A stretch of DNA of 64,000 bases from Heptranchias perlo (taxonomy: Eukaryota): the NCBI RefSeq assembly GCF_035084215.1, contig NW_027139666.1, positions 2,170,001 through 2,234,000 on the forward strand, given 5' to 3'. The translations under genes and the position numbers were made by a program. The notes under the pieces were generated by a model. The model was not told where the DNA came from. It saw nothing but the letters and a program-made list of their open reading frames with translations, and made no database searches. The number at the start of each line of letters is the position of its first letter. The stretch's first letter is position 1. Below, one piece after another: positions 301 through 35,669 of this stretch.

Positions 301-310
301 TAATACTCAC

Positions 311-339
311 GTTGTGGCCTGAGCGAGAAGCTACGGCAT
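311..339 (-). CDS. Putative first cytoplasmic exon of Ig-like receptor, (N)AVASRSGHN
   Basis: Strong acceptor ttcttttttccccttgtag and donor gtgagt; starts in phase 1, compatible with the TM exon. Confidence 0.5.
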
Positions 340-727
340 CTACAAGGGGAAAAAAGAATCGTGTTTAGCTCCAGATGTCATTTAATTGTTGGTTGTTGTC
401 GGAGTTTTGTTTTCCTGTCTTCTGTGCAGTAAGGAAGAGCTGTGACGAGCGCCTGAATAAGATTAGGGGGGTAGAAATTTGTCTCAGGCTGAAGCGCAAA
501 TCAGGCGGTGTCACATTTGCTGCCTGTTATATGCTCCACCCGATATCAAGTTCCAATCAATGCCAGGTCAACAAGATCGGTATAATAAGTGTGGAATCCA
601 CCAAAACTGGGAAGTGTCACATGAGACATTAAAGTATCTTGGGGAGATCTCCCCCTTAATTATCTTTCAGGAAACGTTCAATTTTTGCATTATTTGATCA
701 TCAGGGGAAATCTAAGCCGTCACTTAC

Positions 728-835
728 TTTTCTTATGGAGGGAGAACCAGGCGAGTCCTAGGAGCAGGATGACTGTTATCACTGCGGCACATCCGGCCCC
801 TATCTTGACCCGCCAGCCTTGAGAGAGTCGGGATA
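728..835 (-). CDS. Transmembrane exon of Ig-like receptor, (V)SRLSQGWRVKIGAGCAAVITVILLLGLAWFSLHKK; acceptor mutated
   Basis: 108 bp, phase 1-1, 22-aa hydrophobic run then HKK stop-transfer; donor A|gtaagt; the polypyrimidine tract ends ttttttAA instead of AG. Confidence 0.75.
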
Positions 836-1249
836 TTAAAAAAGACAAAGAAATAATAATTTGCAAAACGGAGAAACTCTACACAACGGGGTAAAAAATT
901 GTTTTTAGGCATTGTCGCAAAACGGGTGGTGGTTTCACAGCCGCCACCCAGTTTACGACCGTCCAGATAGAATTGAATATCTGGTTAGGCCTGTAACAGA
1001 CGGCCGTTGCGTTAACGCCCGTTTTGCACCACTGCCCACAACGGAGTTCCACTCCAATCTTTGCTATTCCTACCCGGTCGAAATCCTGCAGTGCCATGAC
1101 ACAGCTGGCTGACAGTTCCAAACATTAATACTGACGCAGATGCAGACCCCCATCTGGAATATCTGTAGGTACCTGCATCTATATGTACCCCATTTGTAGT
1201 TTTCATTACCTACTACTTTGTACTGCAAACAGAATCTGACCCTATTTTA

Positions 1250-1652
1250 GGAACTAGAAACGAGGGACATAGAGACACTAAGAACTGTGGAGGAGCAGAG
1301 CAATTTGTGATCAGGCACAAATCACTAAAAGCAAGTGGACAGGTACAACATTAAACAAAAGGGCTAATGGAATATTGGTCTTTATCTCAAAAGGGCTGTT
1401 GCAGCTGTACAGAGGTCTAGTTGGACAACATCCGGAAAACTGTGTTCAGTCCTGGGCACTGCACCTCAGGATGCATACATTGGCCTTGGAGAGGGTGCAA
1501 CGCAGATTCGCCAGAATGATACCGGAGCTTAGAGGGTTAAATTATGAGGACGGGTTGAACAAACTTGGCTTTGAATCGCTTGGTTATAGAAGGTTGAGGC
1601 GTGATCTAATCGAAGTGTTTAAAATGATTAAAGGATTTAATAGGGTACATAC
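1250..1652 (+). mobile_element. CR1 LINE fragment (RT C-terminal part)
   Basis: ORF 1375-1656 LERVQRRFARMIPELRGLNYED..RLRRDLIEVFKMIKG. Confidence 0.85.
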
Positions 1653-3195
1653 TTGAAGAACAACAGAAAATGCTGGAGAAGATCAGCAAGTCAGGCAGCA
1701 TCTGTGGAGAACGAAACAGTTAACGTTTCAGGTCGGAGACCTTGCGGGAGAACAAAAGATGTTGAAAGAGTTAAAGTTTTTTTTAGCAAGTTCAGAGCCA
1801 GGGAAAGGGGGGAGGGAGGGAGGATAGAGGAGGGGAGGGCAGGAAAGAACAAAATGGAAGGTCTATGATCGAGTAGAGGGCACGAGTGATTAAATGTCAA
1901 AAGGGATGATGGTTCAAGGTAAGGAAGGTAGTAATGGGACAGGTTAAGAAAGAAAAGATTGATCAGGAGTAGATGTAAATGGCAGCAGAAGAATCATTAC
2001 CAACAATGGCTGACCGAAAAAATGGGAGCAGTGGTTATGATCTGAAGTTATTGAAATCAATGTTGAGTCCGGAAGGTTGTAAAGTGCCTAATCGAAAGAT
2101 GAGATGCTATTCCTTGAGCTTCCATTGAGCTTCATTGGAACAATGTAAGAGGCCGAGGACGGAGAGGAGAGGGAAGGGGAATTAAAAAACAAGCGACCGG
2201 CAGGTCAGGGTCATGCTTGCAGACAGAGCGGAGATGTTCAGCCAAGCGATCATCCAGTCTGCGTTTGGTCTCCCCAGTGTAGAGGAGACCGCACTGGGAG
2301 CCGCGGATACAGTATACTAAATCGAAAGAATTAAAAGTAAGCCACTTTTTCACCTGGAAGAAGTGTTTGGGGCCGCGGACAGTGGGAAGGAAGGAGGTGA
2401 AGGGGCGCGTGTTTCATCTCCTGTGCTCACACGTGAAGGTGCTGTGGGGAGGAGAGCGGGTGTTGGGAGTAATGGAAGAGTTGACCAGGGTGTCGCAGAG
2501 GGAGCGGCCCCTTCGGAATGCTGAAAAGGGAGGGGAGAGGAAGACGTGTTTGTCGTGGGATCGCGCTGGAGGTGACGGAAATGGCGGAGGATGATCCGTT
2601 GAATGTGAAGGCTGGTGGGGTGGAAGGTGAGGACAAGGGAGACCCTATCATGGTTCTGGGAGGGAAGAGAAGGAGTGAGCGCTGAACTGCGGGAAATAGG
2701 ACGGACATGGTCGAGGACCCTGCCAACTACAGTGGAGGGGAATCCTCGGTTGAGGAAAAAGGAAGACCTATCGGAAGCACTGTTGCGGGAGGTGGCATCA
2801 TCAGAACAGATGTGATGGAGGTGGAGAAACTGGGAAAAGGGAATAGAGTCCGTACAGGAAGAGGAGCGGGAGGAAGTGTAATCAAGGTAAGTTGTGGGAT
2901 TTAGTCGTCTTATAGTAGATATTGGTTGACAGCCAAACCCCCAGAAATGGAGGTAGAAAAGTCTAGGAAGGGAAGAGAAGGGTTTGAGATGGACCATGTG
3001 AAGGCGAAGGAAGGGTGGAAATTGGAAGCAAAGTTGGTGACATTTTCTAGTTAGGGGCGAGAGCAGGAAATGACAACGATACAGTCATCAATGTACCGGA
3101 AAAAGAGGTGAGGGGAGGGACTTGAGCAGGAATGGAACAAGGAATTTTACACGTATTCCACAAAAAGGCAGGCAGAGCTTGGACCCATACAGGTT
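1653..3195 (-). mobile_element. Penelope-like retroelement, degenerate (RT C-terminus + GIY-YIG endonuclease + terminal repeat)
   Basis: YLDYTSS..SIPFSQFL..ICSD (2350-2997) and VYCIR..CGLLYTGETKRRLDDRLAEHLRSV GIY-YIG (2132-2353); typical terminal motif near 1660-1745. Confidence 0.85.
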
Positions 3196-3650
3196 CTCAC
3201 AAATACCTGAAGGGAAAAAATTGCAAGGCTATGGGGTAAGAGCGGGGGAATGGGACTAACTCGATTGCTCTTACAAAGAGCTGGCAAGGGCTCGATGGGC
3301 TGAATGGCCTCCTTCGGTGCTGTAACCATTCTATGATGCAATACAGTTCCTCTGCTGGGGGAGTCCAGAACAAGGGGGCAACACCTTATAATTACATCTG
3401 GGCCGTTCAGCGGCAATATCAGTAAACGCGTCTTCACACAAATGGGAGTGGAAATCTGGCACTCTCCCCCAAAAGGCCGTAGAAGCTGGGGGTCAAATGG
3501 AGGTTCAAAACTGAGATTAATAGATTTTTATTGGATAAGGGTATCAAAGAATGTGGAGCAAAGGCGGGTAAATGGAGTTGAGGTGCATATCAGCCACGAT
3601 CTGAATGGCAGAGCAGACTCGAGGAGCTGACTGGCCTGGTCCTGTTCCTC
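3196..3650 (+). mobile_element. Two CR1 3' end fragments
   Basis: CR1 3' UTR with attctatgat tail near 3330; GESRTRG..FTQ..VEIW motif at 3355-3470. Confidence 0.75.
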
Positions 3651-4014
3651 TGTGGTTGTAACACTTGAATTACTGTGCGATTTCATACTGATTAGAAATT
3701 AACTTGTAACGGCTGGCTAGTAAGTTTTAACATGCTGGTTATATATGGAAATTTTACGTGCTGTGGTCTCTGATTTAGAACGTTGAGGGTTCCAGGCATC
3801 GCACCAGGGAGTTGAGCACTTGCTCTTTTAAATTTATGCGATAGTATAAAACGGGCAATGTTTAAATGGCTACTCGAAATAGCTCTAACTCAGAACATTT
3901 GCAAGAGATTCTTATGCCAGAGCTCGCCATCTTTCAGTAACAGACGCTGATCGAATTGTACACTGACCTCAGGACAATAAATGAATTACACTTCACCATT
4001 TCAAAATTTACTAT

Positions 4015-4545
4015 TCCATTGCTCTCCTGGCCGGACTCCCACCTTGCACCCACCATTAACTTGAGCTCATCCAAAACTCTGCTGCCCCGTATCACCCCCT
4101 GTGCTCGCTGACCTACGTTGGCCCCCGATCCGGCAATCCCTCGATTTTAAAATTCTTATTCTGGTTTTCAATTCCCTCCATGGCCTCACCCCATCCCTAT
4201 CTCTGTAACCTCCTCCAGCTCAATGACCTTCCATGATCTCTGCGCTCCTTCAATTCTGGCCTCTTGCACATCGCCGATTTCCTTCGCCCCACCATTGGCG
4301 GCCACGCCTTCCGCTGCCTAGGCCGTAAGCTCTGGAATTGCCAACCTAAACCTTTCTGTCTCTGTACCGCTCTCTCCTTCTTTGAGACGCTCTTAAAACC
4401 TACCCCTTTGACCCAGCTTTTGGTTACCCGTCCTAATATCTCCTTATGAGGTTCGGTGTCAAATGTTGCCTGAAAAGACACCTGTGAAGCGCTTCGGGAC
4501 GTTTTACTACGTTAAGGTGCTGCATAAATGCAGGTTGCTGTTGTT
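4015..4545 (+). mobile_element. L2-clade (HER1-like) LINE 3' end
   Basis: LELIQNSAA, TIGGHAF..LWN motifs; tail cctgtgaagcgc..ttttactacgtt..ataaatgcaggttgctgttg. Confidence 0.75.
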
Positions 4546-4652
4546 TAGATTCTCCATCAACTTCTCACCAGTGTCAACGAGCGCCGAAACCCCCGCATAC
4601 AGAATCGCGGTTGTTGCGTGAATACACACATGACCGTTGGTTATTTCTACTC

Positions 4653-4671
4653 TGACCACCAGAGGGCGGTG
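4653..4671 (+). promoter_or_regulatory. CTCF-like motif
   Basis: TGACCACCAGAGGGCGGT closely matches the CTCF core CCASYAGRKGGCR. Confidence 0.45.
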
Positions 4672-4780
4672 CAGGTCGCGTCAGGTTCGCAGCAATAATG
4701 CAAAACTCCCTCTCTCACAGATCCTCAGACTACCTCCCACCTTCAGAGAATGGGATTGTGGAGATGTGACATGGATGTAC

Positions 4781-4831
4781 CTTTTCTCCAGCTTTGATTC
4801 TTCGGTGTGGGCGGTTTCACAACAGGAATTT
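4781..4831 (-). CDS. Stalk exon of Ig-like receptor, (E)IPVVKPPTPKNQSWRK
   Basis: 51 bp, phase 1-1, acceptor ttttgccatttcag, donor AAG|gtacat; Pro/Thr-rich; lies between the last Ig exon and the TM exon. Confidence 0.65.
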
Positions 4832-4854
4832 CTGAAATGGCAAAACATAATAAC

Positions 4855-5240
4855 GTGAGGCCCTTCAAAATTTTATGCACTTCAATTATATCTCCCCTCA
4901 GCCTCCTCTATTCCAAAGAAAATGACCCCAACCGATCCAATCTTTCCTCACAGCTGAAATATTGTCCTTTAAAAGAGCTATCCAATTAGTCTCACTGCAC
5001 TGCTCTTTCCACACAGCCCTACAAATGTTGTCCTTTTCAAGTATTTATTCAATTTTCCCCTTTTGAAAGTTATTATTGAATCTGCTTCCACCACCCTTCC
5101 AGGCAGTGTATTCCAGATGATAACAACTGGCTGCATAAAAACAATTCTCCTCATCTCCTCCTCTGGCTCTTTTGCAAGTTATCGTAAATCTGTGTTCTCT
5201 GGCTACTGACCCTCCCACTGGTGGAAAGAGTTTCTCCCTG
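4855..5240 (-). mobile_element. CR1 fragment
   Basis: Reverse complement gives the CR1 ORF2 end (VVIIWNTLPGRVVEADS). Confidence 0.7.
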
Positions 5241-5336
5241 TTTATTCCATCAAAGTCCTTTGAGACGGCCCGAGGTCGTTGAAGATGTGATATAAAAGCA
5301 AGTGCTTTTTTTCAATGTGTTGTAAGTACCACTCAA

Positions 5337-5634
5337 CTTTCACAGTTACCTGCACCAGATCACTGCGCGGTGAGTGATACATTCCCTGCTTTACCCTTCT
5401 CTCATAGCCACAGGTGTAGTTCCTTGTCCCAGCTGTGTCCCTGCTGGTGAAAGTGGCTGACTGCTCAGAGCCGGACACATTCTGTGCCTCCACGTGGTTG
5501 CGCTCGCCATCTCTGTATAAGTGAAAGCTGCCCCCGGAGGAGTGAAGGACCCCTGTGCAGGGAAATCCAACGAACTCTCTTTACTGACCACACCGAAGCA
5601 GGATTGACAGAAATGTTCGATTTCGAGAGTGTAG
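5337..5634 (-). pseudogene. Degenerate Ig exon D3 of the receptor
   Basis: TLSKSNISVNPAS/GVVSK/REFVGFPCTGVLHSSGGSFHLYRDG..SATF..YTCGY..SPRSDLVQVTVK spread over three frames; 298 bp versus 300 for D2; donor is TTGAGT rather than GTGAGT. Confidence 0.8.
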
Positions 5635-6569
5635 CTGCAATTGACCAGATGCAGTGTACAGGAGTGGTTTACAAGAGACAGAAAATTCCTGGGCGCCAAA
5701 ACTTTGGACGGGGCATAGAACAGGCGGCTGATCTTGCGTTATCCCAAGACAAATTTCTACCCCTTTGCCCATTATTACCGCTGCAGTTGGTTAACAAAAA
5801 TCGATGGAGGGGGCAGAGCGGCTATTTTAACTTTCTGGGGATAGTGCAAAACGGGTGATATCGGATGGGCCGGCCATGGTACACAACTGTCTTGATTTCA
5901 ATTTCCATTGACATCATTTTATAATATCAGCGAAATACGCGATATTATTGGCGGATTATAAGAGAGATCAGAGCTCAGATATGGATCGGCAGTGGGCTGG
6001 TGTCGACACTTGCGAGGTTGTTTATGGTCTGTAGTTTCTGGGCGGGGGGGGGGGGGGTGGTTGTTGAGCTTAGAGATGGAAATTTGGCGGGTGAATTGCA
6101 CACTCTGGGCGGAAATTTCGATAGGTGCCGTTTTTGGGCGCAGGTAGCCTGATGTGCTTTTACCCCGCGCCCAATGGCCCCTGCGCAGGCGGAACACAAG
6201 TTTCGACCCACCTGAGGACTGACCTGCAATCAGAGTTCCTTTCCTGGCCTTGCACGTGGAATCAATGCAATTTGCACTTTCCACCACCAGAGGGAGCTCA
6301 ATCTCTTAAAGGGAGGACGTTTCTAATAAATCTCTTAAAGCTGGCTGGTACCTGTTATTTGCGGAAAATAACATTCTACTGTCTGTTCAGAGTAGGATGA
6401 GAGTTCAGACATCGCACAGGTAAAACACAGATGCAGGTCCCATCCCTATGTTTGCATACTGATGAGATATGTTAAAATGTTGAATAAAGGTTGCATGCCA
6501 CTAAATCCCACATCCTCCAATCTGCACGCCAGACCTCACCAACCTGCTGATCTGAGTTGTTACCAGGCC

Positions 6570-6810
6570 TGCGAGAGTGCATGCACCAAGGTTCTCAGCT
6601 GATGCACTAGAGGCCTTGGCTGCAAGAGGTGGACAGAAGGAGGGACATTCTATAACCTCAGTGTGGGGGGCAAGAGGCTCTCCAGACATATCCTTGAAAG
6701 ACAGGGTTAGCCAACGGGGTAAGAAATCAATGCCAGGCGCAAGAATCATGAACATTGACGCAGCGGAGGAAGAAGTTCAATGCTTTTACATGAGTGGGCA
6801 AGGTGAGTGA
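6570..6810 (+). mobile_element. PIF/Harbinger Myb/SANT-like ORF relic
   Basis: Frameshifted PRFSADALEAL..QEVDRRRDIL..TLTQRRKKFNAFT*VGK|gtgagt, resembling Harbinger Myb-like DNA-binding proteins. Confidence 0.55.
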
Positions 6811-7920
6811 GGTCAACTCTCAATGGCGTCTCCTACCAACTGCACCAGACACTGCACCACATCCCCCACATACCAACAAACTATTTCCATCAGGATACAA
6901 CTCTTCCAATCAGATGCTTCCTCTTACCCTTACACATTACCACTGTTTCAATCCGCCCACCCACAACACACAGGCCACACACACTGGCAGCTATTCAACC
7001 ATGACAGGCACATCATCCATACACACGTCTCGGTTTCTTGCAGGAGAAGGTGGCGCATGTCAAGAGACAGAAAGTGGCTGTGGCATATAGCCCCTCGAGC
7101 CTGTCCCACCATTCAATGAGATAATGGTGGGCATGTGACTTAACTCCATATACCCGGCTTAGCACCATATCCCTTAATACCCTTGGTTCACAGAAATCTA
7201 TCAATCTCAGATTTAACATTTACAAGTGACCGAGCATCAACTGCGTCTGCAGAAGAACGTTCGAAATGTCACTCACGCTTTTTCACATAGAAACATTTCC
7301 TAACTTCACTGCTGCACGTCCTGGCTCTAAATGTCATGCTATGTTCCTGCATCCTAGTATTCAAGTGTAACAGACATCTAAAAACAGTTACCAATGTCTC
7401 AGCAGCCTGAAGCAATAATCCAACCACTAACCTGTAAATTCTGCATGGTCCCTTTAAATGGCGCCGGTGGGCGGCCCTCCAGGTACCATCAGACATGTTC
7501 AGATGGTCGGAGTTGAGTCTTTACGTTGAGCTGAGCGATCAGTCCCAAAATGGTGTCTATCACTTTAAATCACCGTTGCACACTGATTCAAGCCATTTTA
7601 TTCCTACTTTACATGATTCCAGCGTTCGTTATCTGCGCCCGCGCTAACACATGCAACAAAATGGCATCAGGCGCACATCACGCCAGAAACGTGCATACGC
7701 ATCCAAGACGCCATCTTGGATGTCGAAGAGGCCGTGTCGCGCCAAACTACTTTGGAATTTCCTCTTTGCGCTCCATTTAAGGGATCTCACCGGCAGTAAG
7801 GACGAAAATCTACCACAGCGTGCGATTATAATTCACTTCCTCTCATCCTGCCACATTTCATAAGGCGATTTGATTTGCATTTACTCTAGTCCCGCCTCTT
7901 TTAGAATACTTGAAGAACAT

Positions 7921-8285
7921 CAGCCGTGACTCAGTGGGGAGCACTCTCACTTGTCTCTGAGTCAGAAGGTCATGGGTTCAAGTCCCCACTCCAGAGACTT
8001 GAGCCTAAAATCGAGGCTGATACTTGCAGTCCAGTAATGCGGGAGCGCTGCACTGCAGGAGGTGCTGTCTTTCGGATGAGAAGTTAAGCCTCCCAGGTGG
8101 ACATAAAAGATCCCATGGCACTAATAGAAGAAGAGCAGGGGAGATCTCTCCGGTGTCCTCGGTCAATATTTATCCCTCCACCAACATCACTAACAGCAGA
8201 TTATCTGGTGATGACCAAATTGCTGTTTGTGGGACCTTGCTGTGTGAAAATTGAGTGCAGCGTTTCTTACATTACATCAGTGACT
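7921..8285 (+). mobile_element. tRNA-derived Deu-domain SINE (SacSINE1/AmnSINE-like)
   Basis: tRNA-like head (gactcagtgg..gggttcaagtccc) plus Deu core gtctttcggatgag..aaaagatcccatggcact..gaagaagagcagggga. Confidence 0.75.
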
Positions 8286-8492
8286 CTATAAAGAAGAGGC
8301 GGGTTTGGGTCGGACACACGACTGATTTGATGCTCCAATGAAGTTCCCACCGATGGGGTTAGGTTAATATCTGGGCTTCTAAAATCTTTACTGACTGAAG
8401 AATGTCACACTGGGTAGAATATTCAGTTGCAAAGTTTACTTTGCTTGCAAGGCTCAGATATACATTTACATGATGTTGAACCTTTGACTTAC

Positions 8493-8792
8493 CTTTCACA
8501 ATTAAATGCACCGGGTCACTGCGGGGCGAGATATATTCTTTCTCCTTTACCGTTTTGACAAAGTCACAGGTGTAGTCCCCTCCGTCAGTTGGGTCGGGGT
8601 CTGTGATGTTGAAGATGATTGATCGTTCGGAGCCTGAGACTTCCCGTATATCAATGGGATTCTCGTTTCCTTGTCTGTAAAAGCGGGACCTGTCGGCGGA
8701 ATAGCTGGCAGTGCAGTTAATCCGAACCCTCTCTCCCACTGTCACGACACCAGCGGCCGGGTCCATAGAGACTGTGGGCTTTGGCAGTTTAT
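8493..8792 (-). CDS. Ig C2-type exon D2' of LRC-like receptor
   Basis: 300 bp, phase 1-1, AG/GT intact: DKLPKPTVSMDPAAGVVTVGERVRINC..FYRQG..DGGDYTC..SPRSDPVHLIVK. Confidence 0.88.
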
Positions 8793-8869
8793 CTGTAATT
8801 AGTAGAATACATTGAGCAAATAAGAATTGTTTTGAATGTATCAAATCGATCGAGTAAAAAACACATTAG

Positions 8870-9355
8870 CCTAAGAGAGGGTGCAGAGTAGATTTACCAG
8901 AATGATACCAGGGATGATGGACTTCAGTTACGCGGAAAGATTGGGGAAGCTGGGACTGTTCTCCTTAGAGCAGAGAAGGTTGAGGAGAGATTTAATTGAG
9001 TTGTTCAGAATGATGAAGGGTTTTGATAGAATAGATGGGGAGAAACTGTTTCCACGGGCAGGAGGGTCGGTAACCAGAGGGCACAGATTGAAGATAATTG
9101 ACAAAAGAACAAGAGGGCAGATGAGGAGACATTATCTTAGCAGCGAGTTGTTATCTTCTGGAATCCATTTCTAGAAAGGGCGGTGGAAGCAGATTCAATA
9201 ATAACTTTCAAAAGAATATTGATATATACTTGAAATGGTAAAAAAAATGCAGGTTTCCAGCAAAGAGCAGCCGATTGGCAATAATTGGATATCTCCTTCA
9301 AAGAGCTGGCACAGGCATGATGGCTCTAATGGCCTCCTTCTGTGCTGTATGATTC
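8870..9355 (+). mobile_element. CR1 3' fragment (duplicate at ~11995-12460)
   Basis: ORF 8881-9174 FTRMIPGM..LGLFSLEQRRLRRDLIE. Confidence 0.85.
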
Positions 9356-9750
9356 TGTGTAAGGCTCTGTGTTAAGGGAAACGTCTCTCAAATAAATAGT
9401 GATGCAGGCTCTGTGTGAAGAGACACCTCTCGCAGTGAGATACAATGATAAAATCTCTGTGTAAAGGGACATATCTCTCAATAAGATGCTATGATACACT
9501 CTCTGTGTCAAGCGACAACTCTCTCAAGAGGAAAAGCGATACAGGCTCTGTGTGAAGTGATACCTCTCTCAAAAAAGATACAATGATACACTATGTGCGT
9601 GAAGGGACACCTCTCTCAAAGAGGTAAAGCGATACAGGCAATGTGTGAAGAGACATCTCTCCCAGTGAGATACAATGATACACTCTGTGTGTGAAGGGGC
9701 ACCTCTCTCAGTTAGATACAGTGATCCAGACTCTCTCAATGAGATAGAGT
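9356..9750 (+). repeat. ~46-bp minisatellite (also 12460-12905 and 13678-13850)
   Basis: Unit approx. gatacagtgatacaggctctgtgtgaagagacacctctctcaaaga; period 46 measured at 13721/13767. Confidence 0.8.
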
Positions 9751-9921
9751 GATCGAGGATAAGATAAGATTCATTTTGTCAAACACATTTTACACATTCT
9801 CCTGTCAGCTGGAATTCCCCGTGTACAATTACACACATCAGTCGCTGTCGCTACACACTAACAACAGTATTTAGATAAAATTCTTAACTGGCCACAAAGC
9901 TTTTAGGCGAGCCTCCCTTAC

Positions 9922-10068
9922 CTGATAAATTTAACACACGTTGTCACTGGGTGGTGAATATGCCCAGCTGCTGATATTCTCGAAGTATTCTGAGTATTTA
10001 CACCTATAGCTGTTGCTGCCTTTCTGCGTTAACCCTCCAGCATCCTTAGTTATCGCGGTATATTTCAC
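9922..10068 (-). pseudogene. Truncated 3' half of a D1-type Ig exon
   Basis: VKYTAITKDAGGLTQKGSNSYRCKYSEYFENISSWAYSPPSDNV, 1-bp deletion at the Trp codon, donor intact, 5' half missing at the duplication junction. Confidence 0.85.
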
Positions 10069-11047
10069 ACTGGCAGGTTTTCAACCATGACAGTCACATC
10101 ATTCATACACACGTCCGGCTTTCTTGCAGGAGAAGGTGGTGCATATCAAGAGATATCAAGTGGCGGTGGCATTTAGCCCCTCGAGCCTGTTCCACCATTC
10201 AATGAGATCACGGTGGACCTGTGACTTAACTCCATATACCCGCCTTAGCCCCATATCCCTTAATACCCTTGATTCACGGAAATCTATCAATCTCAGATTT
10301 AACATTGACAAGTGAGCTAGCATCAACTGCGTCTGCAGAAGAACGTTCTAAATGTCACCCACCCTTCGCATATAGTAACAATCCCTAACTTCACTCCTCC
10401 ACGTCCTGGCTCTAAATGTTAGGCTATGTTCCTGCATCCTAGTATTCAAGTGTAACAGACATCGAAAACAGTTACCAACGTGTCGGCAGCCAGAAGCAAT
10501 AATCTAAACACTAACCTGTAAATTCTGCATGGTCCCTTTAAATGGCGCCGGTGTGTATGTGTGTGTGTGGGGGGGGGGGGGGGTGGGGGGGGAGCGTGGG
10601 TTCCTCCAGGTACTATTAGACACATTCAGATGATCGAAGTTGAGACTGTGCGTTGAGTTGAGCGATAAGTCCCAAAATGGTGTCTATCACTTGAAATCAC
10701 CGTTGCACACTGATTGAAGCCATTTTATTCCTACTTTACATGATTCCAGCGTTCGTTATCTGCGCCCGCGCTAACTCATGTACCAAAATGGCATCTGGCG
10801 CACGTCACGACGGAAACGTGCATGCGCATCCAAGACGCCATCTTGGATGTCGAAGAGGCCGCGTCGCGCCAAACAACTTTGGAATTTCCTCTTTGCGCTC
10901 CATTTAAGGGATTTCACCGGCAGTAAGGACGAAAATCTACCACAGCGTGCGTTTATAATTCAGTTCCTCTCATCCTGCCACATTTCATAAGGCGATTTAA
11001 TTTGCTTTTACTGTCGTCCCGCCTCTTTTAGAATACTTGAAGAACAT

Positions 11048-11410
11048 CAGCTGTGACTCAGTGGGGAGCACTCTCACTAGCCTCTGAGTCAGAAGGTCAT
11101 GGGTTCAAGTCCCAACTCCAGAGAATTGAGCCTATAATCTAGGCTGATACTTGCAGTCCAGTAATGCGGGAGCGCTGAACTGGAGGAGGTGCTGTCTTTC
11201 GGATGAGACGTTAAACCTCCCAGGTGGACATAAAAGATCCCATGGCACTAATAGAAGAAGAGCAGGGGAGATCTCTCCGGTGTCCTCGGTCAATATTTAT
11301 CCCTCCACCAACTTCACTAACAGCAGATTATCTGGTGATGACCAAATTGCTGCTTGTGGGACCTTGCTGTGTGCAAATTGGCTGCAGTGTTTCTTACATT
11401 ACGTTATTGA
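11048..11410 (+). mobile_element. Deu-domain SINE, duplicate copy
   Basis: Near-identical to 7921-8285. Confidence 0.75.
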
Positions 11411-11919: not shown

Positions 11920-13077
11920 CTGTAATTAATAGAATACATCGAGCAAATAAGAACTGTTTTGAATATGTCAAATCGATCGAGGAAAAACACATTAGCCTTA
12001 GAGAGTGTGCAGAGGAGATTGACCAGAATGACACCAGGGGTGAGGGACTTCAGATACGCGGAGTGATTGGAGAAGCTGGGACTGTTCTCCTTAGAGCAGG
12101 GAAGGTTGAGGAGAGATTTAATTGAGGTGTTCAAAATGATGAAGTGTTTTGATGGAATAGATGTGGAGAAACTGTTTCCACGGGCAGAAGGGTCGGTAAC
12201 CAAAGGGCACAGATTGAAGATAATTGACAAAAGAACAAGAGGGGAGATGAGGAGACATTATCTTAGGCAGCGAGTTGTTATCTTCTGGAATCCATTTCCT
12301 GAAAGGGCGGTGGAAGCAGATTCAATAATAACTTTCAAATTATATTGATTTATACTTGAAAAGGAAATATTTGCAGGATACCGGGCAAAGAGCAACAGAG
12401 TGGGAATAATTGGATAGCTCTTTCAAAGAGCTAGCACAGGCTTGATGGCCCGAATGCTGTATGTTTCTGTGTAAGGCTCTGTGATAAAGGACACGTATCT
12501 CAAATAAATAGTGATACAGGCTCTGTGTGAAGAGACACCTCTACCAGTGAGATACAACGATACAATCTCTATGTAAAGGGAAACCTCTCTCAAAGAGGAA
12601 ATGCGATGCAGGCTCTGTGTCAAGGGACACCTCTCTCAATATGATAAGATGATACACTATGTTTGAAGGGGCACCTCTCGCAAAGAGGTAAAGCGATACA
12701 GGCAATGTGTGAAGAGACATCTCTCCTAGTGAGATACAATGATACACTCTGTGTGTGAAGGGACATCTCTCTCAAAGAGGTAGAGCGATACAGGCTCTGT
12801 GGGAAGAGACATCTCTCCCAGTGAGATACAATGATACACTCTCTTTGTGAAGGGACACCTCTCTCAGTAACATACAATGTTCTAGACCCTCTCAATGAGA
12901 TGGAGTGATCGTGGATAAGATAACATTCGTTTTGTTAAACAAATTTTACACATCGTCCTGTCAGCTGGAATTCGCCGTTTACAATTACACACCGCAGTTG
13001 CTGTCGCTGCACACTAACAACAATATTTAGATAAAAGTCTTAACTGACCACAAAGATTTTTGGCGAGCCTCCCTTAC

Positions 13078-13389
13078 CTGTTAAATTTAACCACACGTTG
13101 TCACTGGGTGGTGAATATGCCCAGCTGCTGTTATTCTCGAAGTATTTTTTGTATTTACACCTGTAGCTGATGCTGCCTTTCACCTTTAACCCTCCATCAT
13201 ATTTTGTTTTAGCGGTATCGTTAACTTCATTGAAATATGCAAACATTTTGTTTTTTGTTTTTTCGTTATTTCTGTAGAAATCAACAATGCATTTGCTGTG
13301 AGCGAAGTGACAGGTGAGTGAAACTTCTTCTCCCAGTAGAATTACACTCCATGCTGGATCCATCGACAGGGTCGGTTTGACGAAGGAAA
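13078..13389 (-). CDS. Ig exon D1 (membrane-distal) of LRC-like receptor
   Basis: 312 bp, phase 1-1, ttcttcag acceptor and gtaagg donor: SFVKPTLSMDPAWSVILLGEEVSLTC..FYRNN..SYRCKY..YSPPSDNVWLNLT. Confidence 0.88.
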
Positions 13390-13499
13390 CTGAAGAATAA
13401 AAAGGATTTCATTCATGGGAAGTTTGGTGCAATCATTCTGATTCAGGCCTCATATTGTGTCGCCTCAGCTGCCTTTACATTCTTCTTCGCGTTTGTTTA

Positions 13500-13677
13500 A
13501 CTCTAATTTTAACCTAACCAACCAGGGCGTGTAATAGACGAGATCGGGTCGGACGCCCGTTTTACACCCTGCGCGATTTTTACTCTACATTGACTTCAAT
13601 AGAAGAGTAAAATCGGACAGTCCGTAAAATCGGAGTTGGACTCAATTCTCACCGGCCCGTTATGTTAAAATGACCCC
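13500..13677. mobile_element. MITE-like palindromic element (degenerate)
   Basis: aattttaac...gttaaaatgaccc ends and a central palindrome ttttactct..agagtaaaa. Confidence 0.5.
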
Positions 13678-13900
13678 TCTCTCAGTGAGATACAGTGTGT
13701 ACAGGCACCTCTCTCAAAGAGATACAGTGATACAGGCTCTGTATGAAGAGACTCTTCTCTCAAAGAGATACAGTGATGCAGGCTCTGTATGAAGAGCCAC
13801 CTCTCTCAAAGAGATACTGTGATACAGGCTCTGTGTGAAGGGACAATTCTCCCTGTATCAAATCAGTTGCACGGCGCTGCTGCCTGTTTGCCTCTCACAT

Positions 13901-14069
13901 GGGATTAATTTTAACCTAACCCGCCTGGCGGGAAAACCACAGGATCGGGTGGAACGCCAGTTTAACACCCTGCCCTTTATTATTTTCCATGACTCGAGCG
14001 GGGCGCACAACCAGCTTTGTGCCCGATCCAGTCAGTTTCTCGACAGGCGGATTAGGTTAAAATTAGCCC
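13901..14069. mobile_element. MITE with ~35-50 bp terminal inverted repeats
   Basis: ggattaattttaacctaacccgcctggcgggaaa ... tttctcgacaggcggattaggttaaaattagccc. Confidence 0.7.
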
Positions 14070-14879
14070 TTAAGATCCATCCGCCGCTGGGATAAGTTTC
14101 TGATTTCATTGTTTCTGAGACAGTAACAGTGCAGCCTGGACCCAGTACTGTACCCTACAGGCTTCCAGGAAATAGATTGAGGGGCTTAGATGGCAACATT
14201 ACAAGGCAGATCTCAGTCAAAACTAGTAGGTCAACACAATCCCACAATCATCCACACGGATGAGAAGGGCCTTGTTGGCGAGTGAACCGATATTCTGGAT
14301 GTAAATGAGAAGGAGTGGTGATCGATCCACTGAAGAGTCTAAGCGGGTAGTGGAGTCGGGGTGGGGGGGAGCGGTAAGTGAGACGGGAAGGACGTTTGTG
14401 AGGTTAACTCTCAGCGGGAGCGGTGGGTGGGAAGATCAGCAATAGAAGAGGACGGGGCGATGGTATTGGTGATGCTGTTCGTAAGTTACGATTGACAGAG
14501 CTCTCAACGGGACGTTTGGAGAATGCCAAGAGCGGCACAGAGGGCAGCTGTGGACTTACTCACGAGGAATTCAAGCCTGTGAGAGCAAAAGAGTAGGAAG
14601 GCCTAGGAGCAGTGATGTATTGAGTTACTGGCGTTGGGGAGGGGTGGAATACACAAGAGGGAAATAAAGACCACGGAGAAGCAGGAAAGGGATCTGGGGG
14701 AGATGAGAGATTTATCATTCAAATCATCCAGGCAATGCTTGGCTCTTGCCAAATGTGATTTGAATTGCTTACAATACGAAACACAGGTTAGATCAAAAGA
14801 AGTGATGTTGCCATTCAGTCGAGCATTTGTCCGCGAAAGTGCATGGAATTCGAGGCAAACTATTGAGATGGGTAGGGCA

Positions 14880-16470
14880 TTGGTTAAAAGGTAGGAGACA
14901 GAGAGGAGGGATAATGGCTAAATGCACCGATTGGTAGGACGTGACTAGTAGTGCCTTCCGGGGATCTGGACTGGTGCCTCAGCTTTTCACTATATTTACC
15001 AATGACTTTTATGAAGGAATTGGTAATTCGTATTAGAGTAGTATATCCAGGTTGGCTGACGAAATTAAGTTGTGTAGGAGGGAGCAGAAATTTGGAAAGG
15101 GAAATTGATAGATTCAGTGAGTGGGCAAATCTGTGGCAGATGGAGTTCAATATGGGGGAATGTGAAGCCATCCACTTTGACCGAAGACAGATAGATTAGT
15201 GTGTTTTCCAAATAGTGAGAAGCAAGGAACTGTGGAGGGCTGGAGAGATTTCGGAGTTCATAAGCGGAAATCACTAAAAACTAGAGGACAGGTACAAAAC
15301 ACAATTTAAAAGGTTAATTGAATGATAGCATTTATCTCAAGGGTGCAGGATTACAAAGGAGTGGAACTTATGCTATAGTTGTATAATGCTCTGGATAGAC
15401 CGCATCTGGAGTATTGCGTTAAATTCTGAAAACTCCGCCTCTGGGAGCATATATTCGCCTTGAAGGGGTTACAGTGTAAATTCACGAGAATGATACGTGG
15501 GATAAAAGGGTTCAATTATGAGGACAGGTTTTATGGACCAGGCTGAGTGTAAAAGATTAAGTGGTGATCAAATTGAGGTGTTTAAAACGATTAAAGTATT
15601 TGATTGGGTAGATCAGGAGTGTGATGGAATACACTCCACTTGCCTGGATGAGTGCAGCTATAACAACACTCAAGAAGCTCGACATCATTCAGGACAAAGC
15701 AACTCGCTTGATTGGCACCCCATCCACCACTCTAAACATTCATTCCCTTCACCATCAGCGCAACGTGATTGCAGTGTGTACCATCCACAGGATGCACTGC
15801 AGCAACTCGCCAAGGCTTCTTCGACAGCACCTCCCAAACCCGCGACCTCTACCACCAAGAATGACGAGGGCAGCAGGCACATGGGAACAACACCACCTGC
15901 ACTTTCCCCTCCAAGTCAAACGCCATCCCGACTTGGAAATATATCGCCGTTCCTTCATCGTCGCTGGGTCAAAATCCTGGAACTCCCTTCCTAACAGCAC
16001 TGTGGGAAAACCTTCACCACAAGGACTGCAGCAGTTCAAGAAGGCGGCTCACCACCACCTTCTCAAGGGCAATTAGGGATGGGCAATAAATGCCGGCCCC
16101 GCCAGTGACGCCCACATCCCATGAACGTATAAAAAAAATAGAGTGTGACGATTTACTCTGCTGGGGGGAGTCCAGAACAAGGGGGCATAACTTTAAAATT
16201 AGAGCTAGGCCGTTCAGGGGTGAAGTCAGGCAGCAATTCTTCACACAAAGGGGAGTGGAAATCTGGGACTCTCTCCCCCCAAAAATTGTTAAGGCTGGCT
16301 GTCAATTGAAATTTCAAAACCGAGAGTAATAGATTTTTGTTAAGCAAAGGTATTAAGGGATACGGAACCAAGGTGGGTAAATGGAGTTAAGATACAGTCA
16401 GCCATGATCTAATTGAATGGAGGAATAGGCCCGTGGGGCTGAATGATCTATTCCTGTTCCTGTGTTCTCA
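14880..16470 (+). mobile_element. Degenerate CR1 interrupted by a second LINE 3' end (15612-16139)
   Basis: RFSEWANLWQMEFN (CR1 RT); the insert encodes MEYTPLAWMSA..SWNSLPNS..FKKAAHHHLLKGN with an A-rich tail; CR1 resumes at GESRTRGHN. Confidence 0.8.
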
Positions 16471-16727
16471 TATTCCACCTGGAGTGCTTTGGTGTAGTTT
16501 TGAATCCCACGACAGAGAAAGAGTATGGATGCACTGTCAGAAAACCGGACATATCCCATAGTGCCTTCGCAATGAGAGCTGCTGAGATGCAGATCTGTAT
16601 TATTGCTACCAATGACACAACACAATTGGTTACAGCAACTAACTTAACATACATAAAAACAAAACTCAATGATTCAGCTGTATAGAACATTCAATTTCAT
16701 TACTTTAGAGAAAACGTCAACACTAAC

Positions 16728-16760
16728 CTTGAGAAACGCTCCGCCGAGCCCCAAAAATCA
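16728..16760 (-). CDS. Second leader mini-exon, (V)IFGARRSVSQ
   Basis: 33 bp, phase 1-1, acceptor ttttctcattttag, donor AAG|gttagt; completes a signal peptide with exon 1. Confidence 0.7.
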
Positions 16761-17439
16761 CTAAAATGAGAAAATATGAATTAGTTATACCTCAAACAGT
16801 ACCTTCAGAGGATCAATGTAAAGACTGATTTTTGTGCATTGTGTTATGGATATTTCTCAGTGTGATTGAATTGGTGGCATTCTGGCCCATTTTGATTCAA
16901 CTCCAACTTCAGAACTTGTGCAGTTAATCAGGCAGAAATGCAGAGTTTTGCAGATTTCCATTAACATTTGTGTGAAAAAGTACTTCCTGCTTTCACTCCA
17001 AATCGTCTAACTCTAATTTTTTGATTGAGCCCCCTTGTTCTACATTCCACCACAATAACTGAATAAATTCTATCGAGATGTCCATTTGTAAATAATTCCA
17101 ATAATCTATGGCCGGTATGAAAAGATGCCTGATGGTACAAAACAGCGTGAAAATTTATTCAAAATGCAAAAAGGTCAATTTTGTTACTGAGTGAAACCGT
17201 CACTGAAAGAAAAGGAATGCAGCTGGGTGGATTGTGTGGGTAAACACTGTGCATCTTTACAGATCGCATGGTATTACAGTCAACTCTAGCATGCTGAAGG
17301 AGGACGTGGAGTCCAAATAATGAGAAGTGAATGGTGTTAGAATCCACTGGAAACCGGTACTTTTACAGACACTTAACTCACTGTCACGAATATCACAATG
17401 TGAGTGTCATCGCTTTCGAAGGCAGACTAATTAAAAATA

Positions 17440-18819: not shown

Positions 18820-19245
18820 TAATCTTAGTGACTTCAGTTACGTGGAGAGACTAGAGAAACTGGAATTGTTCTCCTTAGAGCAGAGAAGGTTACAGGGAGA
18901 TTCAGTTGGGGTGTTCAAAATTATGAGGGGTTTTGATCGAGTAGGGAGAAACTGTTTCCACTGGCAGGAGGGTCGGATACCAAAGGATACAGATTAAGTT
19001 AATTGGCAAAAGAACCAGAGGAGATGAGGATAAATTTTGTTATGCCACAAGTTGTTATGATCTGAAATGGTGGTGGAAGCAGATTCAATAGTAACTTTCA
19101 AAAGGGAATTGGATAGAAATTTGAAAAGTGAAAAAAATGTAGATGGTGAAAGAACAGGAGAATGGGGTTAATTTGATAGCTCATTTAAAAGCTGGCATAT
19201 GCATGAGGAGCCGAATGGCCTTCCTCTGTGCTGTAAGACTTCATG
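18820..19245 (+). mobile_element. CR1 3' fragment
   Basis: FSYVERLEKLELFSLEQRRL. Confidence 0.8.
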
Positions 19246-19744
19246 AAGTTCACGAGGTCCTCGTATTTGTTGTTGGAGGTGAATGTGGAGAGGGCTGGGC
19301 AAGAGATTTATGGAGATTGTTTGTAGTGGACAAAAGAAGCTGGAGCTTATCTTTGGTCCCCAGGGTAATCCTGGAGTAGCAGGCGGTTTTCAGAGAGGAC
19401 ATTGTGCTTGTTCTAGTTCTGGGTCAGCCATACCTGGTGATGGATGGCTAAACCAGTTGTGATCCAGATTTGCTGAAGGCTGCACTCCTTGGAATTAAAC
19501 CAGCAGGTGCGATCAGGATGGAAGAGAGTAAAGGTTTTACTAGGGGCAAGGGCATCAACAGTTGGGGAATGGGAGTGGTTGAGAAATTACGCAGCCGCAG
19601 AAGTATGATGACAAATGGCGGGTCAAAGTCTCGGCAAAAGTGAGTGTGGCAGTGTTTATTCCAAAGTTGGAACGCAGAAGTAATTTGATTTGAAGTAATT
19701 AAGGAGATTTGGGTTATGATGGTTGCAAGGAAGTGACCGAGGCA

Positions 19745-20295
19745 TTGGCCGTGTACAACTCTGGGCACCACAGTTTAGGAAGGATGTCAAGGTCTTGGAG
19801 ATTGTAAATAGGAGATTTACCCGGATGATACCAGGGATGAGCGACTTTAGTTATGTGGAGAGTTTGGAGAAGCTGGGGTTGTTCTCCTTAGAGCAGGTAA
19901 ATGTAAAGACAGATCTAATAGAGGTATTCAAAATAATGAAGGGCTTTGATAGAGCAAGTGGAGTGAAATTGTTTCCGCTGGCAAGTGGTCTGTAACCAGA
20001 GATCACAGATTTCAAATAATTGGCAAAAGAACTAGAGGGAAATGAGGAGAATATTTTACATAAAGAGGTTTGCGAAGATCTGGAACACACTACCTGAAAG
20101 GGTGATGGAAGCAGATTCCATCGGAACTTTCAAAGGGCAATTGGACATGTACTTGAAGGGGACTAATTTGCAGGGGTATGGAGAAAATAATTGGTGTGTG
20201 TTACTAATTTGGATAGCTTGTTCAAGGAGCCAGCATAGACTCGACGGGCCGAAAAGCCTCCTTCTACGTTGTAAGAATCTATGATTCTATGATTC
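19745..20295 (+). mobile_element. CR1 3' fragment
   Basis: VQLWAPQFRKDV..; (attctatg)n tail at ~20280. Confidence 0.85.
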
Positions 20296-23211
20296 TTGTC
20301 AACTTGAAATTTTAGTAAGCGGAGAGAAGGATATTGGCAGAGCTCAGGAGGACACATGGCAGATGACATTTAATGTAGAGAAGTGTGAAGTGATGTATTT
20401 TGGAAAGAAGAGTGCGAGGAGGCAATATAACCTAAATGATCAAATTGCATATTGGATGCAGGAACATAGAGACCTGGGATACAAATACACAAATCTTTGA
20501 AGGTGGTAGTTGGAGATTAAAAGGTAAATGCCGACCCTCCTGCCAGTGGAAACAGTCTCTCCCCCAACTACGCGATTAAAACCTTACATTATTTTTTTCT
20601 GAGCAACGGGCACCAGCAGCACTGTGTTTATTTCAGGACATTAGTCTCCACACACTGTGCAGATCCTTATCTGTGATATGGTGAACTCCAGCATACTTAA
20701 GGAGGAGGTGGCGTCTCAATAATTAGTACAGAATAGTGTTTGAACTGACTGGGAACCGATACTTATACAATAGCGGTGCAGTAGCACACTGATTATCAGG
20801 CATTTATTTCAGACTAAAATTGAATTGAATTCACTTGAAATAGATAGAGATGTTTAATATTACACCTAATATCACCTCATTGTTTCAAATGTTACAATTC
20901 GGGTGAACGGTGTGGAAGGAGGATGTAAATTGAACAAGAATAAGTAAAGAATCTGAAAATATTGAAGGCAGAATTTAACAGTGACATCAAATACTTAGAA
21001 CGGAAACCAATGGTTTCAGCTCAGAAGCGCTTCACCTCGGACAAAGAGGAAGTTTAACCGCTGACAGTAAGGACAGTCAGCAGAACAAAAATGTGCTTAA
21101 ACACACTGAATGAAAATTCATTGTGCCAATCTTTCTGATTTTCTTCCAACCGATGGTTATATTCATTAATTCTTTGAAAGCAACCAATATTAGAGGTGCA
21201 GTAAAATATATATTCACTGACATTCATTTATTAATAAAATACAATTCAAGACACCTAAAATAAATAAAAATATTTAATATTGCAACGAACATCTCCGAAG
21301 CTATAATTAAGGGGATCTATTTAGGGACAACACTCAAATAAAATGGGAACCCCTGACAGAAATAACAGTGTAGCAGACCAAGAATGTGTTGAAATATATT
21401 GAATGAAAATACATTGTGGCAATCTTTCTGATAGGCTTTTAACCGAATAATTAATTAATTCTTTGAAAACCACCTCTAATAGTGGTGCAGTAGCACACTG
21501 ATCATCAGGCATTCATTTATGAATAAAATTGAATTGAGTTCACTTGAAATAGATGGAGATGTTTAATGTTACACCTAATATCACCTAAGTTAGCAATAAG
21601 GGGACATATTAGATGGTACGCCATTGTTCTCCATTTCACCACCATAACTAAATAAGGTCTGTCGAGAGCTGTAAATTTGTAATTAATTCCAATAATCCAT
21701 GGTAATTATGAATAGGTGCCCTTGGGTCTAATTACACAATAGCGCATGAAAAGTTGGAGATAAGGGGTTAATGCTGAGCCCAACTTGCAGCTGCAGCACT
21801 CTGTTTATTGTGGAACATTAGTCTCCACCAACTGTGTAGATCTCTATCTTCGTGACATGGTTAATTCTAGCACACTGAAGGAGGAAGTGGAGTTAAAATA
21901 AATTCCCAGAGCTGAATGCGCCTGAATTGTTCACCAGAAACATTTAGTTGTACAGACAGTACACACACGCTCATAAATATCACACACCCACTAAAATCGA
22001 GATGCAAGACGGAATAGAGAATGAAAAATAAGCAAGCAAACTGAAAATGGCCAGTACTGAAGAGAACAGCAAGAGCAGTTGGCTTCATGGCGGAAGACAG
22101 CGGTTTCAACTCAGAGGAGGGTTAGTTCAAAGAAAGAGGAACTTAACCTCTGACAAAAGGAACAATGTCTCAGCACCAACGGAATAGCTAAAAATATATT
22201 TACTAAATTATCCACTGAATGTGTTAAAATGTTTCTTCTCCGCTTTTTCTCTCTATCTCCCCCAAAGAAGTGTATTCACGAAGGGAGTTGCTCAGGACCG
22301 CCCTCCAATACCCCACCGCATTATCTGCTCATGTCTGAGTGCAGGGGTTGATTGACCTGAGGTCAGCCGTGGTGACCCCTGAAGAAATTGCACCTTCCGA
22401 ACGCGCATGCTCACTTCCAAGCATGGAACATATAGTATCATAGAATCAGAGAATCAGAGAAGGTTACTGCACGGCAGGAGGTCATTCGGCCCATCGAGTC
22501 CGCGCCGCATCGATGCATGAGCAATCCAGCTAGTCCCACTGCCCCGCCAGAAATAGCAGGGCTCGTCCGAGATGCAATAAGATGCGAGAAGGCGACACTT
22601 GGCCGATATTTCATTCAATGGCTTTGGGGCACTGAGCCCAATGGTGTCGCCGCAACCACTCATCCCCCTCCCCCCGCCCCTTGATAGAGATCAGCAAACT
22701 CAGTGGATGTTGATCTTTGAATTTTCCTTTCATATCAATCTTACTCCTACACTGTAGACAGTAACTGGGCAATCGGCAGACCAATATCATCCCTTTTCAC
22801 CCCGTCTCAAGGCGCCTCACAGGAGCAATATCAAACAAAATGTGACACCGAGCCGCTAAATTAGATATTAGGTCCGATGACCAACAGTTGGTCAAAGCTG
22901 TAGGAGTTAACAGACAGATTCTCAGAGATTCAATTGTCAAAGACAAACTGGATGCGAGATACTTTAATACCGAAATTAAGAGAGATTGTCCCCTCAACGT
23001 TACACTCCCCTCACCGTTACCCGCAGAGAATTCAACACAAGCAAGCAATCGCTCTGAATGCTTTCCAATGTCGAAGGTTCCACACAAAATTATGAGTTGC
23101 ATTAATCCACTGAGATACCGGAGATCGGACACCGCCGGGTTCAGTCTCACTCTCCCGCTTACAGTTGCCCACTCAGACCGGGAATTGGTATAAAATTGTT
23201 TCACGACTCAC

Positions 23212-23242
23212 CAAAGAGCAGTAAAAAGACGGTTGTATCCAT
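23212..23242 (-). CDS. First coding exon (leader), MDTTVFLLLF
   Basis: aaaATGG Kozak context, hydrophobic core, 31 bp, phase-1 donor G|gtgagt. Confidence 0.78.
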
Positions 23243-35637: not shown

Positions 35638-35669
35638 AGCGGCCAAGAGTAAATCTGATAACCCGAAGG

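Follow-up and report, generated by a model that had tools for sequence, protein, structure and literature searches.

For the inhibitory receptors of the leukocyte receptor complex (LRC), such as LILRB/PirB, long-tailed KIR and CHIR-B, a two-exon signal peptide, one exon per immunoglobulin (Ig) domain and separate stalk, transmembrane (TM) and tail exons are described in passages of PMC3601082. A TM segment with the motif NxxR and an acidic C-end, of the type that docks FcR-gamma, is singled out as the most conserved LRC element in passages of PMC6557307, which add that Xenopus FCRL and SLAM receptors also use an NxxR TM. According to the part of PMC4016189 (2014) consulted, sharks have no LRC, FCRL or FcR-gamma homologues and the origin lies at the root of the bony-fish lineage; excerpts of PMC8562567 (2021) trace the LILR system only to ray-finned fish, and in those of PMC6557307 (2019) even the bony-fish link is uncertain and the word 'shark' is absent. 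Neither LRC nor Ig-like receptors appear in the consulted portions of the main text of the bamboo and whale shark genome papers (PMC7677710, PMC8455134; their supplements may list such genes), and no description of the family considered here was found in the open-access literature searched, subscription journals being outside its reach. Here we describe a receptor gene on the minus strand of a 64,000-nucleotide stretch of DNA from the shark Heptranchias perlo (the window: C1499:2170001-2234000 of the 3.25-Gb genome). An earlier note had assembled an LRC-type Ig receptor from this DNA and assigned it to a shark-like genome, an origin borne out by proteins labelled Heptranchias perlo that are 97-100% identical to the exons. 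We take the gene to be an intact type I inhibitory LRC-type leukocyte receptor within a large paired-receptor family of cartilaginous fishes, with a probability of roughly 0.7. That it is a real inhibitory receptor of a paired family is very probable; its place in the LRC lineage, rather than in FCRL or a separate branch, is likely, to a somewhat lesser degree. It is a known kind of receptor, already in RefSeq under automatic names, and it is at odds with the published statement of absence. The gain lies in its recognition and in a corrected gene model, not in a first sight of the sequence.

Nine live exons of 31, 33, 312, 300, 300, 51, 90, 29 and 183 bp (1329 bases in total) join into a corrected frame of 442 residues with zero internal stops and canonical splice sites throughout, the first seven junctions being in phase 1 and the one ahead of the last exon in phase 0. 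The product consists, in order, of a leader, three Ig domains, a stalk, an uncharged TM segment and a tail with inhibitory motifs of the immunoreceptor tyrosine-based kind (ITIMs); the ectodomain holds ten N-glycosylation sequons. The Ig, stalk, TM and tail exons recur in the same order in six paralogous loci and are also found in proteins of other sharks, and the arrangement is therefore not a product of chance. The gene is real and intact, and it very probably codes for a type I inhibitory receptor.

The TM helix spans residues 331-363 in a structure model of the paralogue P0001, and its hydrophobic core in the window gene is without a charged residue; this copy, alone of the seven compared, has an Arg at the outer TM edge, in a context that is not NxxR. 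The last exon carries VVYASL, which fits the ITIM consensus, and CVYAVM, which is ITIM-like only, with their tyrosines 31 residues apart; uncharged TM and ITIMs together are the inhibitory form. The two tyrosine motifs are kept across sharks. All five tails read from the subfamily of the window gene (A-type; two of them labelled Heterodontus and Carcharodon) have V/L-x-Y-A-x-L followed by CVYAx[M/I], with tyrosines 31-32 apart. The spacing is 30 in an elephant-shrew LILRB3-like protein, and a lizard protein ends in a similar motif, CTYAAL. Paralogues with an Arg-bearing, partly NxxR, TM and short tails accompany this inhibitory form in the genome: all seven candidate TM exons have the Arg, three as N-L-I-R on contig C1275 and four as P-I-R on C1456 and C1562. 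Glu stands at the inner TM end in the six that were read, and a stop follows just behind the TM in one. NxxR with an inner acidic residue is thus found among the paralogues, the N-L-I-R form being confined to three of the seven. In the Cetorhinus protein P0003 an A-type ectodomain is joined to an Arg TM. ITIM exons are present in proteins of a second, B-type subfamily from other sharks; in the Heptranchias sequence retrieved, none was found to follow the B-type TM exons. As for a signalling partner, one strong adaptor TM exon of the CD3-zeta/FcR-gamma family lies at C11:52321824-52321910, presumably closer to CD247 than to FcR-gamma, with a weak second match at C1:111764533. A three-domain gene at C511:781499-789243, related to Heterodontus P0090, also has an Arg-bearing TM (A-L-I-R, acidic inner end).

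The assignment to the LRC rests above all on domain D2. When D2 was compared with PDB sequences, 58 of the best 60 of 231 matches were either LRC proteins or antibodies carrying a LILRB1 or LAIR1 insert, with PirB, LILRB2, LILRA6, LILRB3, LILRB1 and OSCAR at the head and including LAIR1, CHIR-AB1, GPVI, KIRs and NKp46; the remaining two were Robo1, and Fc receptors (FcR), FCRL, CD22, Siglec and CEACAM were not among these 60. With the AlphaFold model of P0001 (pLDDT 75.6), Foldseek ranks 1-12 were all LRC and Fc-gamma-RI first appeared at rank 33, and all 50 listed VIA rows were LRC (Z 13.3-15.3), with no CD22, Siglec or CEACAM among them. A profile of 12 relatives placed PirB (4e-38) and LILRB2 (2e-25) first. 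Compared with seven amniote proteins, each represented by its best-scoring domain, D2 reaches 33-52 bits, as opposed to 22-26 bits against PECAM1 and an obscurin-like protein. D2 is thus an LRC-type C2 domain in sequence and, in the P0001 model, in fold, and the LRC-type reading of the earlier note holds up: D2 matches LRC structures ahead of other Ig families, and the ITIM-type motifs and NxxR paralogues agree with it. The motif on which that reading had leaned (LPKP to SDP, no C-strand Trp) is plain in D2 and in its copy D2', which have LPKP, L-Y-R or F-Y-R at the Trp site and an SDP end; D1 fits it more loosely. Library searches point the same way. In a library of 1.84 billion proteins 1362 match, and the 20 looked up among the best 150 come from sharks, rays, a chimaera, a grouper, turtles, lizards, an alligator cluster, opossum, elephant shrew and monkey. 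Names among the same 150 include IGSF1 (monkey), LILRB3 (elephant shrew), A1BG-like (tortoise) and IGSF1-like (opossum, lizards, alligator). Feature matches in the ESM Atlas (0.91-0.94), a lead only, were KIR3DX1, IGSF1, A1BG and also FCRL2.

It could be argued that another Ig family (CD22/Siglec, CEACAM, PECAM or HIDE1/C19orf38) has come to resemble the LRC by convergence, as the Pfam model Ig_C19orf38 (HIDE1) matches several relatives and CEA is second for B-type domains. The gene has no N-terminal V domain, CD22, Siglec and CEACAM are missing from the PDB and VIA matches given above, and with D2/D2' the domains of PECAM1 reach 26-27 bits, less than any amniote LRC-type protein compared; we consider convergence of this kind scarcely credible.

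A number of results weigh against placement of the window gene in the LRC. The per-domain scores of D2 in PDB are low, about 20 bits at best, and the VIA superpositions have root-mean-square deviations of 8-17 A, because the domain angles differ; moreover, the fold searches share sequence signal with the D2 search and are not independent of it. FCRL5 is third with the 12-relative profile (2e-20, summed over nine domains). D1 alone has its best match, at E 0.0027 over 30 residues, to Fc-gamma-RIIA, with KIR3DL1 at E 0.005 across its length, and its family assignment appears ambiguous between KIR3DL1 and Fc receptors. FcR/FCRL domain subtypes, none of which is listed for D2, are weak for D1 and first for the internal domains of the B subfamily (four to eight Ig domains), which match FCRL5, CEA and Fc-epsilon-RI ahead of LILRB2. 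CVYAVM departs from the strict ITIM consensus as given in passages of PMC3601082. The Arg-TM genes read in the Heptranchias genome carry B-type, not A-type, ectodomains, and FcR-gamma itself was not identified in the adaptor TM search of the genome. Furthermore, the 'LRC hallmarks' of the earlier note are present and are not exclusive, a split leader occurring in FCRL and FCRL5 domains being without the C-strand Trp.

The trees (a 194-domain FastTree and a 61-domain quick IQ-TREE, with PECAM1 and the obscurin-like protein as outgroups and no FCRL rows) are in part a further point of this kind. Shark D1, D2 and D3 each form one group, with supports of 1.0, 0.96 and 0.96 (Shimodaira-Hasegawa) in FastTree and of 100, 95 and 85 in IQ-TREE, from which it follows that the A architecture predates the split of the shark lineages sampled. 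The LRC domains of amniotes form a group separate from those of sharks (0.83 in FastTree; 93, with one outgroup row inside, in IQ-TREE), and neither tree resolves the deep forks; the domain phylogeny proposed in the earlier note yielded the shark groups. Orthology to KIR3DX1, OSCAR or LILRA2, genes absent from the trees, appears unsupported, since shark domain types in groups of their own apart from amniote rows speak against one-to-one orthology.

Synteny with LRC marker genes, which the same note had suggested as a check, could not be shown, a point against strict LRC membership. The Tweety, Not3 and ribosomal S4 families were found on C25, C26, C43 and four contigs of 28-165 kb (those four unscanned for Ig domains), none of them on a receptor contig, and the PRPF31 and LENG9 families (PF09785, PF04457) had no match in the genome. 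There are two CNOT3-like genes, at C43:1670466-1685796 and on C1364. No Ig domain of this kind was found in 190 kb around the former, the gene's own 20 kb being outside the scan; its neighbours include a family-3 G-protein-coupled receptor and a TRIM gene, on account of which it may be a paralogue, and an exon without a Pfam match that we take to be WBP11-like. Family members do occur on chromosome-scale contigs, at C2:1792474-1816360 and C40:10031683-10038585; no neighbour of the lone C40 copy was identified in 90 kb, 132 of 161 non-repeat open reading frames having been scanned with 0 Pfam matches.

One explanation for these data is that the family is an early branch predating the FCRL/LRC split, or a mosaic such as has been proposed for teleost LITRs, and that the window gene is an inhibitory paired receptor outside the strict LRC. 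The ambiguity of D1 would fit this model, as would the separation of the shark domains from the group of amniote LRC domains in both trees and the mixed RefSeq labels of family proteins (FCRL5, IGSF1, KIR3DL1, OSCAR). B genes, which lie in the same clusters, have internal domains that lean towards FCRL5, followed by a last domain that leans towards the LRC and in some cases by an NxxR TM, and NxxR TM and split leader are both common to Xenopus FCRLs in passages of PMC2413239. It is difficult to reconcile with two of the three live domains being LRC-first in every search, and with FCRL5 matches to B domains that stop at profile position 74-78 of 97, whereas those of LILRB2 and CHIR-AB1 reach 93-94. 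The leader mini-exon measures 33 bp, as against the 21 bp stated for FCRL1-6 (passages of PMC2413239), and the closest labelled teleost relative, a protein with SRCR and Ig domains, matches LILRs first in its Ig part, with no FCRL listed. We therefore judge an early branch or mosaic unlikely and favour membership of the LRC lineage.

The features of the locus are collected in Table 1. AG/GT ends were found at seven of the nine exon intervals of the earlier note, and these seven stand; the TM exon had been given as 728-835, a dead D3 exon had been counted in, and the final exon, outside the window, had been missed. Its order of leader, D1, D2, D2', D3, stalk, TM and cytoplasmic part holds in outline, with D3 absent from the product. 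A start of the TM exon at 835 was rejected as AA rather than AG precedes that base; an in-frame acceptor lies 18 bases further inside, in the same arrangement in 7/7 subfamily copies compared, and the RefSeq models P0001 and P0004 splice at the acceptor equivalent to 817. D3 was likewise rejected as a coding exon: it is broken in seven of seven copies and its inclusion brings a stop at residue 381, so it is not part of the product, although RefSeq proteins labelled Heterodontus, Cetorhinus, Carcharodon and Stegostoma have an intact version of the domain. An in-frame ATG 27 bases upstream of the start of leader exon 1 is used by the RefSeq model P0005. The mini-exon is a weaker call than the other exons, being one of 10 candidates under a loose filter of its intron; its AG/GT is kept in 5/5 copies where fetched, and it is included by P0004 and P0005 and left out by P0001. 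KIR genes have exons of 36 bp and 51 bp.

Table 1. Features of the receptor gene and its surroundings (window positions unless a contig is named)
Feature	Position	Strand	Remarks
Leader exon 1, coding part	23212-23242	-	31 bp, phase 1; seen in 3/3 copies fetched
Leader mini-exon	16728-16760	-	33 bp, phase 1-1, AG/GT
Ig domain D1	13078-13389	-	312 bp; divergent, family ambiguous
Ig domain D2	11620-11919	-	300 bp; LRC-type C2 domain
Second D1 exon remnant, 3' half	9937-10068	-	carried along in the tandem duplication that produced D2'
Ig domain D2'	8493-8792	-	300 bp; tandem copy of D2
D3 exon, dead	5337-5634	-	298 bp, frameshifted, TT donor
Stalk exon	4781-4831	-	51 bp, phase 1-1
TM exon	728-817	-	90 bp, 5' end corrected
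First cytoplasmic exon	311-339	-	29 bp, phase 1 to 0; splices to last exon outside window
Last exon	C1499:2167782-2167964	-	183 bp with stop; 2.0-2.2 kb left of window
Tandem duplication	6980-12844	.	period ~3.1 kb; 6980-9736 vs 10066-12844, about 90% identical
46-bp minisatellite	9362-9725, 12512-12879, 13676-13851		in three introns
tRNA-Arg(TCT)-like	34674-34745	-	modest score; may be a tRNA-derived repeat
Histone cluster	35271-56104		four histone 3' stem-loops
Broken H2A	about 35271-35708		
Reverse-transcriptase-like fragments	36204-37608	+	also in many introns
H2B	46173-46622	+	
H2A	47478-47924	+	
H4	52200-52520	-	
H2A	54237-54686	-	
H2B	55655-56104	-	

D2' arose through a tandem duplication of ~3.1 kb that left half a D1 exon behind, and differs from D2 by 9 nonsynonymous and 6 synonymous codon differences; a single duplication unit only is present in two of the seven gene copies. 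The minisatellite is in step with the duplication.

Contigs of four runs from one sample, taken by guess to be RNA, were used to look for transcripts. D2' words are present in all four runs, none of the runs listed with such words being on record as RNA, and two contigs match 13078-13390 with 3 differences (among 32 of about 69,000 pieces); both continue for another 28-47 letters that are unlike the flanking introns, as spliced D1 would. The RNA check proposed in the earlier note thus produced two contigs that stop matching at both D1 borders, and the subfamily is probably transcribed and spliced. Two points weaken the case for expression of the window gene itself. When contigs were aligned to 250-17000 at 85% likeness, none of the 15 joints listed (760 more lay beyond the list) was an exon junction of the window gene, the alignment being swamped by reverse-transcriptase-like repeats; and since the three D1 differences are also the distance to the paralogue g2, expression of this very copy is not demonstrated. 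The repeat fragments in the window are presumably of long interspersed nuclear element type.

The RefSeq record that matches this copy, P0005 (XP_067837081.1, Heptranchias perlo), is named 'osteoclast-associated immunoglobulin-like receptor' (OSCAR); it has leader, D1, D2 and D2' and is identical to the window gene at 325 of 336 aligned residues. Other automatic names in this species are 'KIR3DX1-like' (XP_067835190.1) and 'LILRA2' (XP_067835110.1), and such best-hit names are usually misleading for these receptors (passages of PMC6557307). The models P0167 (Carcharodon), P0069 and P0021, which are of RefSeq type, have a TM in mid-protein and look like fusions of adjoining receptor genes. P0005 ends after D2', without stalk, TM and tail. 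Taken with one probable-RNA contig that reads 31 bases into the intron beyond the D2' donor, with the dead D3, and with a D1 that is broken in two of seven copies besides further remnants, this could mean that the gene is a silent or truncated duplicate, whether a pseudogene or a gene for a secreted form that stops behind D2', which segmental duplication of histone clusters has carried along. The A-type copies are 97-100% alike at most exons and paralogue differences are too few to reveal selection (D2: 12 nonsynonymous and 6 synonymous variant codons). An intact gene is far better in keeping with the open exons and canonical sites, with a RefSeq model of a paralogue, P0001, that includes stalk, TM and tail, and with the retention of the tail motifs in other sharks; the final exon of P0005 falls in an intron stretch that is itself duplicated (found at 10768 and 7641). 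We regard a silent or truncated duplicate as very unlikely and retain the intact inhibitory receptor.

The family is large. The D2 query of the genome gave 149 matches among the 150 scored of 562 candidates, and a second domain query, with 591 candidates, matched in all 150 that were scored, again on the same seven contigs (C1275, C1499, C1456, C1562, C511, C2 and C40); both counts are lower bounds, so that the genome-wide paralogue count called for in the earlier note comes to at least 149 related domains. Among the seven A-type copies compared, five have open Ig exons (one altered at conserved sites). These copies undergo birth-and-death turnover amid histone gene clusters: of 150 H4 matches scored among 406 candidates, 112 (counted by hand) are on C1275, C1456 and C1499, and another 25 on C49 at 20-27 Mb. 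The human histone clusters are located in the extended major histocompatibility complex (MHC) and beside FCGR1A, and so the receptor-histone linkage may be old. No H3 or H1 motif was found in the histone cluster of the window. Genes on C511 (38-48, 265-300 and 435-455 kb) alternate SRCR with LRC-type Ig domains (P0024, RefSeq 'DMBT1-like'), and proteins with SRCR and Ig domains are also found in teleosts (P0011, P0190). The labels of related proteins name sharks, rays and a chimaera.

By extension from the biology of LILRB, KIR and CHIR, we propose that ligand binding would cluster the receptor, and that the tail tyrosines would then be phosphorylated and recruit phosphatases of the SHP-1/SHP-2 type, as in the model for LILRB and CHIR-B (passages of PMC12827074 and PMC3601082). 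The receptor may thereby damp activation from the Arg-TM paralogues, which would signal through an adaptor of the FcR-gamma/CD3-zeta family with an immunoreceptor tyrosine-based activation motif. The ligand may be a self molecule. MHC class I is a possible but doubtful candidate, an immunoglobulin Fc is a less likely one and collagen or matrix less likely again; another or a pathogen-derived ligand comes slightly ahead of MHC class I and is itself a tentative guess. The family and the tetrapod LRC may descend from one ancestral cluster that existed before cartilaginous and bony vertebrates diverged, with no one-to-one orthology to LILR, KIR or OSCAR. The data suggest that paired receptors are older than the bony fishes, and with a family of this build in sharks, rays and a chimaera, the paired ITIM/NxxR system would go back to the beginnings of the jawed vertebrates, the point at which MHC, T-cell receptors and antibodies appear. 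Perhaps, and we offer this tentatively, the histone megacluster holds a paired system near the common LRC/FCRL ancestor, in which LRC-type and FCRL-leaning (elsewhere SRCR) domains have been shuffled onto two fixed signalling modules, an activating NxxR TM and a two-ITIM tail, of a system dating from the first jawed vertebrates, with the A-type genes as candidates for the missing receptors by which sharks would read MHC class I or antibody Fc as 'self'. In any case, the locus offers a way to test how paired Ig receptors originated, and its genes are a tangible starting point for asking by what means shark leukocytes recognise self and whether FCRL and LRC go back to a common root.

When set beside known receptor systems, the gene stands at differing distances. 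The teleost LITRs, compared by description only, have FcR-like D1-D2 followed by KIR-like domains, for which a mixed-domain hypothesis has been put forward (passages of PMC2413239). FCRL5 and the Xenopus FCRL family (XFL) are alike in the split leader, in paired TM types that include NxxR in Xenopus and in large clusters (passages of PMC2413239), and the B-subfamily internal domains match FCRL5 first. They differ in that D2/D2' list no FCRL or FcR among their best PDB matches, and the leader exons of 30/21 bp given for FCRL1-6 and part of XFL (same source) are 31/33 bp in the window gene. In the IGSF1/A1BG group (group B) the likeness consists in proteins of these names among the top library matches. 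The activating receptors LILRA, FCAR, GPVI, NKp46 and OSCAR share with the paralogues the N-L-I-R or P-I-R outer TM end, the acidic inner end and the short tail; the DYT consensus upstream is not found in that form, and the window gene is not of the activating type. From the inhibitory receptors LILRB/PirB, long-tailed KIR, CHIR-B and turkey TILR-B the gene differs in its per-domain identity of about 25-35%, with no orthology to a single member, and in its CVYAVM second motif, its divergent D1 and its location among histone genes. With them it shares a leader split over two exons, a single exon for each C2 Ig domain, separate exons for stalk, TM and tail, in agreement with the layout described in PMC3601082, an uncharged TM and two tyrosine motifs ~30 residues apart, and they are its first matches by sequence and by fold. 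The case for the gene working like LILRB and CHIR-B is a strong one.

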